Assembly (NCBI GenBank): GCA_964460925.1
Contig: CAYWSQ010000003.1
Coordinates: 3,905 to 44,250, forward strand
DNA from: an uncultured Flavisolibacter sp.
Lineage (GTDB): Bacteria; Bacteroidota; Bacteroidia; Chitinophagales; Chitinophagaceae
Reading direction: 5' to 3'
DNA: 40,346 nucleotides
This document shows positions 1,094 through 27,527 of the stretch, in pieces (positions within the stretch are counted from its first letter, which is position 1; every line of letters begins with the position of its first letter). The notes beneath the pieces were generated by a model, which did no database searches, was not told the origin of the DNA, and saw nothing but the letters and a program-made list of their open reading frames with translations. Position numbers and translations under genes: made by a program.

Positions 1094-1424
1094 TTTCTTG
1101 ATATGGATACGGGCAAAGCTGGTGAATTATTTAACACCCATTCAGGAGCGGCCCGGACCAGAGGGTATCAACCAATGGAGCAAGGACGGAAAGAACCCGG
1201 ATTCACCTATTGTGCTGGCTATCAGTGCCCATAGCTCCTGGATTTTGCGCCTTATTTTAAGGAAGCCAGTGGAAGAATAGCCCGTTTTGAGGGCAGTCCC
1301 GCATGGGTTTTGGAGGGAATACTTTTATCAATGGTGTAACATATAAAGCACGCTGGAGAGGACTAAAAAACAGGTAAAAATTAATTTGAATTTTATATTC
1401 CAAAAAAGTTTTTACCTTTAAACC

Positions 1425-1484
1425 AGTTTTCATAGGGTACGGATTAAAAACGGGCCAGGGTTTCTACCCAGGCCCTAATTATTT
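1425..1484 (+). ncRNA. candidate small RNA (anti-start-codon seed plus hairpin)
   Basis: TAccTTTA (-7-like) at 1413-1420 and TTTG at 1385-1388, then GTTTTCATAGGGTACGGATT and hairpin GGGCC-A-GGG/TTTCTA/CCC-A-GGCCC (1452-1475). Seed is complementary to several leaders in the window. Transcription is inferred, not shown. Confidence 0.45.
1446..1475 (-). terminator. intrinsic terminator of the deacetylase gene (possibly bidirectional)
   Basis: GC-rich stem followed on the minus strand by GTTTTT, about 26 nt past the stop codon. Confidence 0.65.
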
Positions 1485-21383: not shown

Positions 21384-21782
21384 ATGCGCAAAATTGAACA
21401 TATCGGTATCGCCATCAGGTCACTGGAAACTTCCATTCCATTATTTGAAAAATTGCTGGATACACCCTGCTACAAGCAGGAGGAAGTGGCTTCAGAAAAT
21501 GTGGTCACGGCATTTTTCCAAAAAGGAGAAACCAAGATCGAATTACTGGAATCCACCACTGACGATGGGGTGATTAGCCGGTTTATTGAGAAACGCGGCG
21601 AGGGGCTGCACCACATAGCATTTGATGTGGAGGATATTTACGCAGAAATGGAGCGGTTGAAAGCGCAGGGTTTCCAGTTACTCACCGAATCACCCAAAGC
21701 CGGGGCAGATAATAAGCTGGTCTGTTTTATTCACCCCAAAACTACGGGAGGTGTGCTGGTGGAGATTTGCCAGGAGCGGTAG
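21384..21782 (+). CDS. mce: methylmalonyl-CoA epimerase
   Basis: IEHIGIA, KIELLE, GEGLHHIAF and HPKTTGGVLVE motifs (VOC fold). Confidence 0.92.
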   Translation: MRKIEHIGIAIRSLETSIPLFEKLLDTPCYKQEEVASENVVTAFFQKGETKIELLESTTDDGVISRFIEKRGEGLHHIAFDVEDIYAEMERLKAQGFQLLTESPKAGADNKLVCFIHPKTTGGVLVEICQER

Positions 21783-21814
21783 CCAACAGCCATTGGCCGT
21801 TAGCCAATGGCCAT

Positions 21815-21846
21815 AAGAAAACCCCAGGTAGACACCCGGGGTTTTT
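21815..21846. terminator. bidirectional intrinsic terminator (TGTCTA loop on minus strand)
   Basis: AAAACCCCAGG-TAGACA-CCCGGGGTTTT between convergent mce and the T9SS gene. Another small hairpin, GCCATTGGC/GCCAATGGC, lies at 21789-21811. Confidence 0.8.
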
Positions 21847-21871
21847 CCTCAACGCCTAAAAAAACAAGTTA

Positions 21872-22843
21872 TCAGAGGATCACCTGCCTGGCCACATTTA
21901 CATCCTGGCCATTGGTGATCGATACAATATAATTTCCTTTCAGGTGAGTCCTGGGTTGCAGAATGACCTGGCCCACTGCTTCATTGATATTTTGCTGTTC
22001 AAGAACCTGTCCGTTCAGAGACACGATCCTTACAACCAGTTTAGATTTGATCTGCTGGGGAAACTGCATCAGCACTTTACCCTGAACGGAGGCGATATTG
22101 ATATTAGATGGTGCAGCCGACTGCTCTGTTTTAATGGTTTTGATATCAGTATAAGTAAATCTTGAATCAATGTCCACCTGCTTCACACGGTAATAAACCA
22201 CGCGGGAACTAATGTTCTTATCAGTATAGGAATAATTGTTCAGGGTATTAGAGTTACCGATAGCGGAAACATAAGCGATCGTCCCCCATTTAGAGCCATC
22301 GAGGCTGCGCTCAATCTCGTAGGAATGAGCATTGATCTCTTCAGTAGTTGACCACTGAACCAATACATCAGTAGCGTTCTTACGTGAGAGTGTAAACCCG
22401 GCAAATTTTACGGGCAGGGGATTATAGCTGGCAAATCCATTGGAACTTCCGGTAGCCAGTTGCGGACCGTTAAGCGTGTTTGCATAGAAGATGGTTTGTC
22501 CGCCGAGAATGATATACTGAAAAAAGTCAATAGTTGATTCGAGTCTGCCACCTGCTGCTACCTGGATCTTGCTGGCAGCATTCAGGGATAAATAGCTCAG
22601 GAAGTTGGTCAGTTTTACAGTTCCGTGTACTTCCAGGTAAACATTATTGAGCGTCTGCTGGCTGCTGATAATTACGGTTCTCCCGGCAGGAATAACAATG
22701 GTATCGCCATTTGCCGGTTTACGGTTCAAATTCCAGGTGGGGTTTGCCTGCCAGTTGCCATTTCCAACGGCTTCGATTACAGGAGCTGAAAAAGATAAGG
22801 TTGAGATGAAAAGTCCCAGGATGAGGAAGTAGAATTGCTTCAT
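21872..22843 (-). CDS. secreted protein with T9SS-type C-terminal sorting domain
   Basis: Signal peptide MKQFYFL...SFSA, GNW motif, LPVKF...W.T..E.N...YEIERS.DG module and CTD KGNYIVSI. Start at 22843 follows TATCTTTA. Confidence 0.82.
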   Translation of the reverse strand: MKQFYFLILGLFISTLSFSAPVIEAVGNGNWQANPTWNLNRKPANGDTIVIPAGRTVIISSQQTLNNVYLEVHGTVKLTNFLSYLSLNAASKIQVAAGGRLESTIDFFQYIILGGQTIFYANTLNGPQLATGSSNGFASYNPLPVKFAGFTLSRKNATDVLVQWSTTEEINAHSYEIERSLDGSKWGTIAYVSAIGNSNTLNNYSYTDKNISSRVVYYRVKQVDIDSRFTYTDIKTIKTEQSAAPSNINIASVQGKVLMQFPQQIKSKLVVRIVSLNGQVLEQQNINEAVGQVILQPRTHLKGNYIVSITNGQDVNVARQVIL

Positions 22844-23217
22844 GGTACGGATCTTTTTAGTTGTTTTCTTAGGGTTGCTAAAGATACCGGTAAGTTTTTC
22901 TAAGTGAATCTGCTTATTGGTAGCCCTTAGCGAGAGCAAAACTATAATGCAGTTTTTTGAGATGCAAGTATTTTTACTGTTTATTGGCGTAAAACCACAT
23001 ATTTTTTTAAAAATTGGGCATAAATTCCTGATAATCAGCAAAACCATTCTAAGTAGTTCCAATTAGTCTTTTTAAAAAACTGGTCTAAAAATTATCAGTT
23101 CTGCCAAATTCCATATGGTAAAAACCCGGTGGCTTTCGCGAAAACGTCCCAGGAAATTACTTATCGCCATTAAAAAACCCGGTAAATAAACCCTTAGAGG
23201 AGTTTGATAAGTTTTTC

Positions 23218-23964
23218 TTAGATGGATAGTGATAATTTTTTCATTACCTCGGCTTTCCTTCTTTTCGAAACTTCCAGTCTTATTCCATTCCTGAGAATGA
23301 TCATCCCATCCTGGTCTATATAGGAAACAAATTTTTTATTGACCAGGATTGATTTATGGCAACGGATCATTCCATGTGGAGACAATAGTTCTTCATAATC
23401 CCCAAGTGTTCTTGAAGCCAGAAATTGTTTTCCCTGGACCGAATAAAATCGTGTATAGTTATTCTGGGCCTCGCAATACATGATGTCTGCAGGTTCCAGG
23501 TAATAAATACCTTCTCTTGAAGGAACCGCCAGCCGGAACTGGCCTTCCGGGGCCTGGAGATTATGCAGCATATTGCGGTACTGGTTTTCAGGGTCAACCA
23601 ATTTAAGATCAGTTTCCATATACCGGTTGATGCATGATATAAGTTCTTCCACATCTACCGGTTTCAACAGGTAGTCAAACGCGCTGAAGCGGATGGCTTT
23701 TATAGCGAATTCATTAAAAGCGGTAGTAAAAACAAGTTTGAATTGATGCCTGGGAATTTTTTGTAAAAGCTCGAATCCGGACAAATGCGGCATTTTGATA
23801 TCGAGGAATACCAGGTCGGGCTTTGTCTGCCGGATCATCTCCGCCGCCAGCCGGGCATCATTGCAAACTGATACCTGGTTTACTGCAGGCGTAAATTTTT
23901 CAATCATCAGCCTTAAGGCATCTGAGGCTCTTACTTCATCGTCTATGATCAATGCTTTTATCAT
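23218..23964 (-). CDS. LytTR family DNA-binding response regulator
   Basis: IIDDE, FLDIKMP, FTTAF, DYLLKP and LytTR IRCHKSILVN. Confidence 0.95.
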   Translation of the reverse strand: MIKALIIDDEVRASDALRLMIEKFTPAVNQVSVCNDARLAAEMIRQTKPDLVFLDIKMPHLSGFELLQKIPRHQFKLVFTTAFNEFAIKAIRFSAFDYLLKPVDVEELISCINRYMETDLKLVDPENQYRNMLHNLQAPEGQFRLAVPSREGIYYLEPADIMYCEAQNNYTRFYSVQGKQFLASRTLGDYEELLSPHGMIRCHKSILVNKKFVSYIDQDGMIILRNGIRLEVSKRRKAEVMKKLSLSI

Positions 23965-23969
23965 TTCTA

Positions 23970-26900
23970 TCAGTCAGGATTCATATTCTTTAAGCTGATC
24001 TCAATCCGGGTACCAGCAGGTTGATGTTGATCATTGAACAGGTCAACCACTTCAATGGTATTAGCCGTTTTATATTTTTCATTCAAAGCCTGCAATCTTT
24101 CAATACCCAGTTTCATCCCCTTGCCGGTATGCATTTCACTGCCATTCTGATAAAGGCTTGCCGATGCCCTGCCCACTCCATTATCTTCAATGATGCATTT
24201 CAAAACCCCAACTTCGGTTTCTGTAAATGAGATCAATAATCTTTTCTCTCCATCGAGATGCATCAATCCGTGCCAGATGGCGTTTTCCACGAAAGGCTGA
24301 AATAATAGGGAAGGAACAAATGTTTCTTCTTCGTCCACACCGTCACCTACCACAAGCTGGTAACTGAAGCTTTCCTTGAATCGGAGTGATTCGAGTTCAA
24401 TATAGAGCCGCAGGATCTCCAGTTCTTCCTTTAGGCTTAATTCTTCCCTGTCACTTGAAGTAAGCACGAGCCTCAGGAGCCGTGAGAATTTGGAAAGAAA
24501 TCTTGTTGCCGTCAATTCCTCACCTGAAAGAATCATTTGCTGGATGGAATTCAGGGCATTGAATAAAAAATGAGGATTCATCTGCAACCTCATGCTCTGT
24601 AAACTTGCCTCCAGTGCTTTCTGCCGGTTCATCAATGCTTCCATCCTGGCTGCCTGTTCCCTTGCTTCCGCCCTGATCCTTCCAATGCGTGCACCACAAT
24701 GGGAAGCGATGGTGGCCAGGATCTGCAAATGCTGGTCTGAATAAAAATCTTTCTGGTGATGCTCACTGTCTATCACACCAATTACACGGCCTTCTTCAAA
24801 AATGGGAACAGTAAGTTCTGAATACCTCATCTCATCATCCACAATATACCGGGGATCTTTCGAGGTATCATTGATCCTTTCCGCCTTGCCAGTTTGGGCC
24901 ACGGTACCGACAATCCCTTCACCCATTGCAATCTCAATGGGGTTGAAGATCTGATTACCTTCTGCAGTCTTGGGGCCCCATGCTGCTTTCTGTATCAAGT
25001 TATTTTTATCATGGTCTACGAGGTAGATCACGCAATCCTCGAACCCGAGACGGGAAATACAGTTTCGTGCAACATCCCATAACACCGCATCAACAGAATT
25101 ATGGCCGCTAAGAGAAACTGTGAAATAATTGATCACCTGTTCTATTTCCAGCTGGTGCTTATAACTGTCTGATCTGAGTTTTTCAATTGCCGTTTTTTCC
25201 TGTTGTTCTCGCTTGAACCTTTTTTCCTTTCTTTTGATAAGCAGATAAGCTGAAAAGATTATCATTAAACTGATCCCCGCAATAAACCACCATCGCTGCC
25301 ACCAGGGAGGTACAATTTCAAAATGCATCCTAACCATATTAGTAGCATCATTGCCACCCAGTGTCGCGCGAAGTTGCAACTGGTATTTGCCGGTTTTTAA
25401 CTGGCGGAAATGAATCACACCTTCTTTGCCTGCGTCTGTCCAATTGGTATCTGAAGGCATGAGCCTGTAATAATAACGTACTGCACCCGGATTGGAAAAA
25501 TACAAAGCAGCGAAACGGATGGACAGGGTATGATGCTCCCAGGGAAAAATATAATTACCCTCCTGATTTATAAAACTGCGTGGATCTTCCGCAGATCCAG
25601 GAAATTCCACAGATGTGATACGCAGCGATGCATGCCTGGAATGCTTCAACAATTCTTCCGGTTGAAATGAAACAGCTCCGGAAGAAGTGCAGGCCCAAAC
25701 GAGCCGGCCATCATAATTCATGGAAAGGCTTTGGAAATTTTTAGCGATGAACCCATCATCCGCATCAAAGTTGGTGACCAAATACTGACCGCCTTCTGTT
25801 TGCCTGATTGCTGTAACACAATTATAATTTCCCGCCCATATATTCTGGTCTTTGTCAAAACACAGGCCCAGGTAAGTGTTCCCCGATAAACCATGCTGTT
25901 GTGACAATTTTGTTTCGAGTTGCAAATTGCCATTGCTGTCAAAACCACAGATAAGAATGCCTGAGCCCCTGGTAGTGATCCATACTTTTCCCTTTAGATC
26001 CTGTTTCATTGAAGTGATCACCAGCCTTTCCCCGGATGAACCAAGGTTATAAGGCTTAAGTTTTTCGCCATCCAGGTAAAACAAACCCAGCTGCCCTCCT
26101 GCCCAAATTTTTCCGGATGGTGATTCACACAAACCGTATAATTTATGATACGTGATCTCTACAGGGTATTCATAATACCTGAACATGAATTTGTCTTGTG
26201 AAGCGTTGTAATCAATCCTGGTAATACCATTATCACCGGCAGTATATAATTCCCCTTTTCCCGTCTTCAAAAATGCATAATGGGAATTATCGGCAAGACC
26301 GTTTTTCCGGTCGAACCTTTTGAGTTCACCATTTCTTAACAGGGCGAGGCCCTGGTAACCTGTGGCGAACCAGATCCATTCATTTTCATCTTCATGCATG
26401 GCAAAAACTTCCGCGAGCGGAACTACCTGCAGGTGATCCATGAAATATGCCAGGGAATCCTTCCATTCAAATATGGTACCCCTGTTGCTGCCAAACAAAA
26501 TCGAACCATTCTTTCTCCGAAGCATGGAATAGATCTCATCTGAAAAAGGAAGATGCTGGCGATTGATATGGAATTGGTTTTTCTTTACCTGGAATAAACC
26601 CTCATTGGATCCAAGCCAGAAGCTGCCTTCTTTATCAATCATCATTCTTGTAGGTGTGCGGATATTCAACTGCACATGAGATAAAACCGTTTGTCTTTTA
26701 CCATTAGACGGATCTATTTCTTCCACACCGCTGGTATGATAAGTATAAAGTTTGTTCTTGTGATTGACCAGGTGGAAGTAATATTCATTACCTGCCCTAA
26801 GTGAAGTAGTTTCACCACCATCCCAATAATGAAGTCCGCCCAATAAATTCAATAAATAAACTGATCCCTTAGGGGTGACATGCACCCCATGCACCAGGTC

Positions 26901-27527
26901 TTTGGGCTGAAGCGGATTTGGTATCTCACGCAAGCTTTGGTTTTGATATAGATACACATGCAGGTCAGTTGAAAAAGCAACGGATGAAGAAGAATGGCTG
27001 ATATGGTATACTGGTCCCATTGTGAGGGAATTCCATCCTTTTAGCAATTCTCCCTTATAACTATTACCTGATTTTTTCAACAGGATGGGCCCTTTGAGGC
27101 TTCCCGCCCACAACTCGTCAGAATTGATAAAATGCACAGCATAAAAAGGCAGGAAAGAGGCCGCCTGGCCTGGTATCTCTTCAACAAAATTTTCATCCCT
27201 CCAGGAATATAATCCTGTTTCAGCAGCAAGCCAAAGTTGTCCCTGGCTGTTCTCCTGTACCTGGTGCACGGCCCCGATCCTTTTTGTTTTCACAGTATCA
27301 TAAATTCTGAAAGATCTTCCGTCAAAACGTGCAACTCCATCTTTGGTACCGATCCAGATAAAATCCCTGCTGTCCTGGTAAAGACTCAGGATCTCAGATG
27401 AAGGCAGGCCGTTTGCAGCGCCAAATGCCTTTACTATATAACCGGGGACCTGTGATGACTGCCCATAGATTTTACAACTGATACAGATCAGCAGCAGTAA
27501 GAGCCTTGTTGGATTAATAAGAAACAA
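23970..27527 (-). CDS. LytS-like sensor histidine kinase with beta-propeller, Y_Y_Y and GAF domains
   Basis: Repeated D..G.(I/L)W propeller blades, Y_Y_Y segment, TM PPWWQRWWF, GAF (GEGIVG...SELTVPI...GVIDSE), LQMNPHFLFN, QPFVENAIWHG and EDNGVG. Confidence 0.92.
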   Translation of the reverse strand: MFLINPTRLLLLLICISCKIYGQSSQVPGYIVKAFGAANGLPSSEILSLYQDSRDFIWIGTKDGVARFDGRSFRIYDTVKTKRIGAVHQVQENSQGQLWLAAETGLYSWRDENFVEEIPGQAASFLPFYAVHFINSDELWAGSLKGPILLKKSGNSYKGELLKGWNSLTMGPVYHISHSSSSVAFSTDLHVYLYQNQSLREIPNPLQPKDLVHGVHVTPKGSVYLLNLLGGLHYWDGGETTSLRAGNEYYFHLVNHKNKLYTYHTSGVEEIDPSNGKRQTVLSHVQLNIRTPTRMMIDKEGSFWLGSNEGLFQVKKNQFHINRQHLPFSDEIYSMLRRKNGSILFGSNRGTIFEWKDSLAYFMDHLQVVPLAEVFAMHEDENEWIWFATGYQGLALLRNGELKRFDRKNGLADNSHYAFLKTGKGELYTAGDNGITRIDYNASQDKFMFRYYEYPVEITYHKLYGLCESPSGKIWAGGQLGLFYLDGEKLKPYNLGSSGERLVITSMKQDLKGKVWITTRGSGILICGFDSNGNLQLETKLSQQHGLSGNTYLGLCFDKDQNIWAGNYNCVTAIRQTEGGQYLVTNFDADDGFIAKNFQSLSMNYDGRLVWACTSSGAVSFQPEELLKHSRHASLRITSVEFPGSAEDPRSFINQEGNYIFPWEHHTLSIRFAALYFSNPGAVRYYYRLMPSDTNWTDAGKEGVIHFRQLKTGKYQLQLRATLGGNDATNMVRMHFEIVPPWWQRWWFIAGISLMIIFSAYLLIKRKEKRFKREQQEKTAIEKLRSDSYKHQLEIEQVINYFTVSLSGHNSVDAVLWDVARNCISRLGFEDCVIYLVDHDKNNLIQKAAWGPKTAEGNQIFNPIEIAMGEGIVGTVAQTGKAERINDTSKDPRYIVDDEMRYSELTVPIFEEGRVIGVIDSEHHQKDFYSDQHLQILATIASHCGARIGRIRAEAREQAARMEALMNRQKALEASLQSMRLQMNPHFLFNALNSIQQMILSGEELTATRFLSKFSRLLRLVLTSSDREELSLKEELEILRLYIELESLRFKESFSYQLVVGDGVDEEETFVPSLLFQPFVENAIWHGLMHLDGEKRLLISFTETEVGVLKCIIEDNGVGRASASLYQNGSEMHTGKGMKLGIERLQALNEKYKTANTIEVVDLFNDQHQPAGTRIEISLKNMNPD

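Follow-up and report, generated by a model that had tools for sequence, protein, structure and literature searches.

The 3′-UTR-derived sRNAs and sponge RNAs of enterobacteria, CpxQ and SroC for example, depend on Hfq. From the Bacteroidota very few examples of sRNA regulation without Hfq or a Shine–Dalgarno sequence are known, and these come mostly from gut Bacteroides. Closest to the elements treated here are the FopS and GibS sRNAs of Bacteroides thetaiotaomicron, which are short, multicopy and comprise intergenic as well as 3′-UTR-derived members (PMC11697453). A FopS RNA is described there as a single-stranded 5′ seed followed by an intrinsic terminator; repression takes place near start codons, the RRM-1 protein RbpB acts as chaperone, and the members, reported in Bacteroidaceae, have one common seed (R1). 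Another Bacteroidota sRNA, Rfp18 of Flavobacterium psychrophilum, is predicted to pair with mRNAs of secreted proteins (PMC9723704). Pairing between the 5′ and 3′ UTR of one mRNA is described for icaR of S. aureus (PMC3868564) and for hbs of B. subtilis (PMC5737220).

We describe here a second, sequence-distinct multicopy family of sRNA-like elements from an environmental lineage. It is a real and conserved family of sRNA-like genes and apparently uncatalogued. The members are predicted to be Hfq-independent sRNAs with a common UNUCUA-loop terminator and, as can be read from the sequences, each consists of a U-rich single-stranded seed followed by this terminator. For the locus at the center of this study we consider it fairly probable that its 3′ module (module B) is a 3′-derived base-pairing sRNA of the UNUCUA-loop family, that a stand-alone member (element A) represses the host gene at its start, and that shortened versions of the locus act as sponges. 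The family offers exact seeds, one strongly conserved predicted target and a loop signature with which further members can be found or a chaperone fished, and the locus would be a natural series from an mRNA to a 3′-UTR sRNA and to a likely sponge.

The layout of the family, the predicted blocking of start codons and the occurrence of both intergenic and 3′-UTR members resemble FopS as described in that report, and element A has a 9-nt motif, a U-run followed by CAUAG, in common with the FopS-10 5′ end given in its oligonucleotide table. Unlike in FopS, the seeds vary by subfamily and the common mark is the terminator loop, which FopS-10 as given there lacks; module B has no CAU and nothing of the FopS-10 5′ motif. 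The R1/R1′ seed was not found in our family, a comparison made via the FopS-10 5′ end, the exact limits of R1 being given in a figure of the report. A search of 14 loci gave no FopS/GibS covariance match at E<=10, the presence of a FopS model in this copy of Rfam being unconfirmed. Judged by its sequences, the family should work like FopS and is not a member of it. Rfp18, compared by its description and not by its sequence, is also a Bacteroidota sRNA concerned with secreted-protein mRNAs; it is single and highly structured and pairs via a stem–loop, unlike this family. None of our elements matched Rfam 15 at the gathering threshold (the sub-threshold matches were to unrelated families only), and no Rfam family matched A at E<=10. 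We found no published description of the elements in the full-text literature, from which most subscription journals, figures and bioRxiv supplements are absent; a motif catalogue may already list them. RNA-guided dCas12f–sigmaE systems (PMC13472631) were also considered and dropped, as no link to the elements was apparent from what that paper describes.

The window, that is the whole stretch of DNA analyzed (40,346 nt, contig C3), belongs to a Bacteroidota genome of 4.0 Mb, presumably of the family Chitinophagaceae, which is 93% complete. The gene set stems from a purpose-built ORF scorer, and some of its start codons will be wrong. The host gene and its 3′ surroundings are made up as follows.

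21872..22843, (-) strand: host gene P0001, 323 aa, with a signal-peptide-like N-terminus, a G8 domain and a T9SS type A C-terminal domain
21846..21867, (-) strand: single-stranded segment of module B, a U-run and the invariant AGGCGUUGAGGA, the likely seed
21815..21845, (-) strand: terminator of module B, with stem 21822-21841, loop GUGUCUAC at 21828-21835 and U-tract 21815-21821
21384-21782, (+) strand: glyoxalase-family gene convergent to P0001, which the module B terminator can serve too

The G8 domain is recognized with a Pfam E-value of 1.7e-6, and the tail of P0001 scores 24 bits as a T9SS type A sorting domain (TIGR04183, cut-off 23). Upstream of P0001 (window 23218-27527) lie genes for a LytTR response regulator and a large sensor protein. 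We rejected this regulator/kinase pair as part of the P0001 unit because the homologues usually have rnc or other genes upstream. An earlier note on this DNA had placed a 3′-UTR segment at 21850-21867, its complement in the leader at 22861-22877 and a similar element at 1425-1484, and all these strings are found where it put them; the two loops stand at 21828-21835 on the (-) strand and at 1460-1467. Its description of the 3′ module as sRNA-like, with architecture and loop in common with the element at 1425, also held.

The loop GUNUCUAC is the commonest terminator loop of the genome and marks four seed subfamilies, A to D. In a genome scan it recurred far above chance, as the earlier note had expected: of the loops of 1,163 terminator-like hairpins GTTTCTAC is the most frequent, and GTNTCTAC stands in the loop position 10 times in the sense of the U-tail as against a hand-estimated chance of about 0.4, the 4 antisense cases being these hairpins seen from the opposite strand. 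The loop marks roughly a dozen hairpins in intergenic regions of the genome. The tetranucleotide TCAT stands upstream of 8/15 loop hairpins as compared with 210/1,148 others. Complements of the C1 and D seeds are only modestly enriched in leaders (p 0.02-0.15, uncorrected); those of the non-AUG part of the A seed (p 0.45-0.84) and of module B (p 0.67-1.0) show no enrichment among the leaders of the genome. No pairing between the seeds of family members was found apart from self-complementary segments. When the loop pattern was searched across the order, strong hairpins made up only 2 of the 28 matches inspected from outside the family. Four more intergenic terminators of the genome (contigs C152, C139, C207 and C218 of G000) have the variant loop GTTTTTAC.

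Element A is located at the other end of the window.

1424..1484, (+) strand: element A, predicted sRNA of ~60 nt, with an invariant 5′ seed at 1425-1445, then an A-run and a terminator
1452-1475, (+) strand: stem of the element A terminator, which covaries, with loop GUUUCUAC at 1460-1467
1385..1420, (+) strand: promoter of element A, TTTG at 1385-1388 and TACCTTTA at 1413-1420

We predict A to be a stand-alone gene with its own conserved promoter and a covarying terminator. The −7 and −33 boxes of the promoter are each present in 23/29 copies, and it is from these conserved boxes that A would be transcribed. The 29 aligned copies have 20 invariant single-stranded bases, 16 of which are fixed by the search patterns. 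In the stem 3 of the 9 pairs show two-sided changes, and the G-U pairs point to the + strand. A gapped pattern finds A in 61 of 121 family genomes, compared with 7 matches of a reversed control; an 18-mer of A with one mismatch occurs in 7/11 family genomes and in 0/139 genomes of 25 other families. Its usual neighbors, here as well, are tatD on one side and a gene for a polysaccharide deacetylase on the other, the two in opposite orientation to it; a same-strand gene of ~300 aa, which is missing from this genome, often stands directly before it. In about half of the relatives this gene, which has a lipoprotein-like N-terminus, ends 14-60 nt before A; at the corresponding place (window 1094-1400) its absence leaves a 400-nt gap without a clear gene. 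One relative (G015) has a second copy of A at another locus, again with the variant loop GTTTTTAC. Two of the three matches to A in contigs of a viral collection (L454 and L455) are copies with a promoter-like box and a terminator. Among public RNA data, 24 runs matched 4 sampled words of A; in the four runs examined the matches are contigs from other strains which run through the promoter and so show no discrete RNA.

The earlier note held that A and B both target the same site in the leader of P0001. A can indeed pair there (-16.2), but its pairing across the start codon of P0001 is stronger (-19.9).

22838..22853, (-) strand: start-codon region (UCCGUACC-AUGAA), predicted target of A; the motif is present in homologues and kept in shortened loci

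At the start region the A site is among the top 5% in 39/43 homologues and among the top 1% in 25/43 when measured against the distribution of this genome; the 43 homologues are kin and not independent. A CCGTA-type motif within 16 nt of the ATG is found in 35/43 homologues, compared with 30/2,904 starts of the genome and with 2/105 starts of four control genes. The conserved predicted site for A is the start codon of the host gene and not the leader site named earlier. By analogy with FopS, the seeds of A, C and D, each a U-run with CAU, may pair across the AUG and the A-rich first codons and so block initiation, and A would repress the host gene in this way. The two best other predicted targets of A, genes of 66 aa, were dropped since their sites are not conserved (motif in 1/10 and 2/14). 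Together with the unenriched seed this counts against a wide A regulon. A family-wide count of A-target patterns was abandoned as too noisy, many matches being A itself or not gene starts. In another genome (L205:1501-1518 of G390) 17 of 18 nt complementary to the A seed lie across the start codon of a 123-aa gene; this gene stands in a mobile-looking operon of unknown genes.

Module B, the 3′ module of P0001, is composed of a U-run, AGGCGUUGAGGA and the terminator with the GUNUCUAC loop. Its stem shows two-sided changes in 4 of 9 pairs, with G-U pairs that favor the (-) strand. The stems of A and B both covary; the duplex with the leader, as shown below, has no compensatory changes among the carriers. 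Among 42 homologues selected by protein the exact B core is present in 12, and the loop is present in the same 12 and no others. Including a remnant in G015, seed and loop occur together in 13/13 carriers and in 0/30 non-carriers; this comparison of 43 loci left out the paralogues L045, L133 and L134, which have a different leader, and loci cut at a contig end. The carriers are scattered over a quick protein tree (8 changes, at least 3 of them forced by strong branches). The exact B 16-mer is found in 31/72 genus genomes, and all 26 B copies read from genus loci via the seed alone carry the loop, which was absent from the search pattern. Several non-carrier UTRs (L018, L019, L113, L116, L124, L126b and L127) often have a U-run and then a CGGA-like word before the terminator; this may be a seed of another kind or what is left of a B.

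The part of module B complementary to the leader is 21850-21867, and the leader contains the following elements.

22861..22877, (-) strand: leader site complementary to B; it doubles as the downstream unit of a direct repeat
22879..22886, (-) strand: putative −7 promoter box of degenerate sequence (TATCTTTA), without conservation in the canonical form
22894..22906, (-) strand: upstream unit of this repeat, at a distance of 32 bp from the one in the leader site

The complementarity of this UTR to its own leader, reported in the earlier note, is real. The duplex has a predicted energy of -19.5 to -22 kcal/mol, the leader of P0001 ranks first among 2,904 leader windows for the B UTR, and the helix has p>=0.97 in a fold of the whole predicted transcript. 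In a genome-wide test of self against swapped pairing P0001 is 4th of 1,369 genes (z 4.7 and 7.3). As a general feature of the genome 5′/3′ self-pairing was rejected: over the 1,369 genes there is no excess (mean z 0.02, flat p-values), and 11 genes were observed at P0001-like scores with 6 expected, several of them driven by repeats. Short 7-nt tandem and inverted repeats, seen at 21783-21812 and in many other intergenic regions, flank many genes and are the source of most top self-pairing scores in the genome.

Such a helix would suit a module B that acts mainly in cis and controls the decay of its mRNA by folding the 3′ UTR onto the initial ~17 nt, as in hbs and icaR. We regard this explanation as unlikely. 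A stable helix of 14-17 bp between the ends of one mRNA, as described for icaR and hbs, is feasible here by prediction if the leader site is transcribed, and over all 43 homologues own UTR/leader pairs are better than swapped pairs (p 0.001). Leader-to-core pairing is stronger in carriers than in non-carriers (-16.5 versus -13.0, p 0.006, uncorrected for kinship), 11/13 carriers as compared with 12/30 non-carriers have leaders in the top 5% for complementarity to the core, and the site is kept in 15 of the 17 full-length B carriers. Among the 13 carriers themselves, however, there is neither an advantage of own pairs nor compensation (permutation p 0.32 and 0.49), tree neighbors with and without B give mixed results, and the site doubles as a DNA repeat which non-carriers retain. 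Within the duplex an invariant C is bulged and the invariant GAGGA lies mostly outside. The icaR pairing is described as covering the Shine–Dalgarno sequence; the helix of P0001 ends 17 nt before the AUG, so that the start codon would stay uncovered. Unlike in icaR and hbs as described, the 3′ part here persists without its 5′ partner and without compensation, the pairing being merely retained in most full-length carriers; in the shortened loci treated below, the leader site and strong cis pairing are kept in 0/19 rows with B intact. Pairing of the mRNA ends, one of two proposals of the earlier note, was not supported as the core function by these data. Its alternative, a 3′-UTR-derived sRNA giving feedback, fits best as far as the sRNA is concerned; feedback of B on its own leader is possible in full-length lineages. 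We conclude that cis pairing is feasible and probably secondary, and that end-to-end pairing is probably not the main point of B.

At the DNA level, the two repeat copies are spaced by 31-32 bp in 24/29 repeat pairs, and homologues without B keep the repeat too. The upstream copy is likely to be a transcription-factor site. With the TATCTTTA box in use, transcription would start roughly at the leader site's first bases; the canonical TAnnTTTG box is found in 0/14 full-length loci. In 22861-22906 and in homologues we noticed phased TWAG repeats ~10.5 bp apart upstream of the T9SS gene, without a canonical −7 box, and the two strongest TWAG copies are 31-32 bp apart; this looks like an activator site. 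The leader repeat was not found before any other clear gene of the genome.

From genus genomes and metagenomes we collected 74 distinct B loci. Here B is exact behind full, truncated and near-empty host genes alike; its invariance in this set is a product of selection by the search, and the informative part is the upstream content. The host gene is full-length in 24 loci, truncated in several and down to ~120-160 nt (ATG to B) in 18 loci mostly of one lineage; frameshifts in metagenome loci may be errors. In the 18 shortened loci, which probably form mostly one clade with few independent events, the leader site is gone. All 18 have a canonical promoter, the direct repeat is kept in only 1/18 as compared with 13/14 full-length loci, and their ORFs (22-42 codons, in differing frames) are not conserved. 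Since B is kept while the host gene and the leader site are lost, B is probably not kept for cis pairing. An own promoter and terminator and conservation apart from the neighbors, as expected of a trans-acting sRNA, are found for A and for B in the shortened loci. A further class of host gene of ~76 aa (L395, L402, L403, L426, L427, L449 and L452), with B intact, lacks the middle part; its signal peptide and the final residues of its T9SS tail are still present.

One could object that the modules are ordinary bidirectional terminators with a stable loop favored in this lineage, and that the complementarity comes from a composition rich in A and U and from a DNA-binding site present as an inverted copy. 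The hairpins of A and B do look terminator-like on the other strand too, U-runs trivially match A-rich starts, and the missing genome-wide excess of self-pairing is also in line with this view. It is nevertheless very improbable in our opinion: A comes with a conserved promoter of its own, its unpaired seed is invariant in ~60 genera and it occurs a second time in G015, non-carriers have unrelated terminators at the place of B, and B outlives the loss of the upstream repeat in the shortened loci.

The shortened loci contain more than B. Pairing with A is kept in 16 of 19 shortened-locus rows (this set includes L427, whose start was mis-called and which is excluded from the counts of 18 loci). 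In addition, a complement of 13-14 nt to the D seed is found in 14/18 shortened loci, as compared with 0/17 full genes and 0/2,904 starts of the genome. The pairing with D has a mean of -20.1 versus -10.9 for shuffled D, and the changes in these complements are G-U compatible as judged by eye. An RNA with an A site, a D site and its own seed may be a sponge. In the sRNA reading, B would arise together with the host mRNA or be cleaved out of it; in full-length lineages it might act on its own leader, by folding back or as feedback, but a different partner would be what it is kept for. The coding part would in one lineage have decayed to give an RNA of ~220 nt with B, the A site and a new D site, which may act as a sponge linking the subfamilies. 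A conserved seed and terminator in an mRNA tail and complements of other sRNAs are also features of CpxQ/SroC-type RNAs; unlike these, there is here a series from a protein gene to a sponge-like RNA.

A conserved trans target of B was not found. Two candidates, the leaders of a response regulator and an acyltransferase, were dropped because their sites are not conserved across homologues (4/51 and 1/7). This would be in agreement with modules that are protein-binding RNA elements, seed and loop being read by one protein, and that set stability or termination or titrate the protein without pairing to a target; the joint gain and loss of seed and loop and the eight RRM-1 (RbpB-like) genes of the genome fit such modules as well. 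We hold this to be quite unlikely. The seeds vary between subfamilies while the loop is common, most homologues have a mirror of the A seed at the start codon of the host gene, and the D seed is mirrored over 13-14 nt in the shortened loci with wobble-compatible changes. Within the preferred reading of base-pairing sRNAs, the conserved loop is likely to mark the RNAs for an RNA-binding protein, for which the eight RRM-1 proteins are candidates. A search for LSM-family proteins in the genome found no match; Hfq was missed in the bacterial controls also, and this search is therefore no test for Hfq. More tentatively, we can imagine an Hfq-free sRNA network in which a single RNA-binding protein recognizes the common UNUCUA loop as a tag for loading, seeds that can be exchanged for one another direct the RNAs to start codons of genes for secreted and outer-membrane proteins, and the present locus is a protein gene turning into a sponge that ties three subfamilies together; we would call this possible but doubtful.

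The seed types C and D recur across genera. Multiple copies of D are present in 12/16 family genomes and in 0/284 genomes from the rest of the phylum. UUUC(U/C)A is retained in the D loop, the closing pair being either G-C or A-U, though some D copies have other loops. Among the best predicted targets of C are a SusC-like gene and very large proteins of secreted type, as labelled from their termini. A member of subfamily C is located in a 3′ UTR at C63:10460-10525 of G000 and in L264 of G015, stand-alone copies being present elsewhere in the same genomes; the gene carrying it is presumably hsp20-like. Finally, 13-nt complements of the D seed occur outside the D copies in two loci of G015 (L469 and L465), one of them directly before a terminator with another loop, and these could be further sponges or targets.
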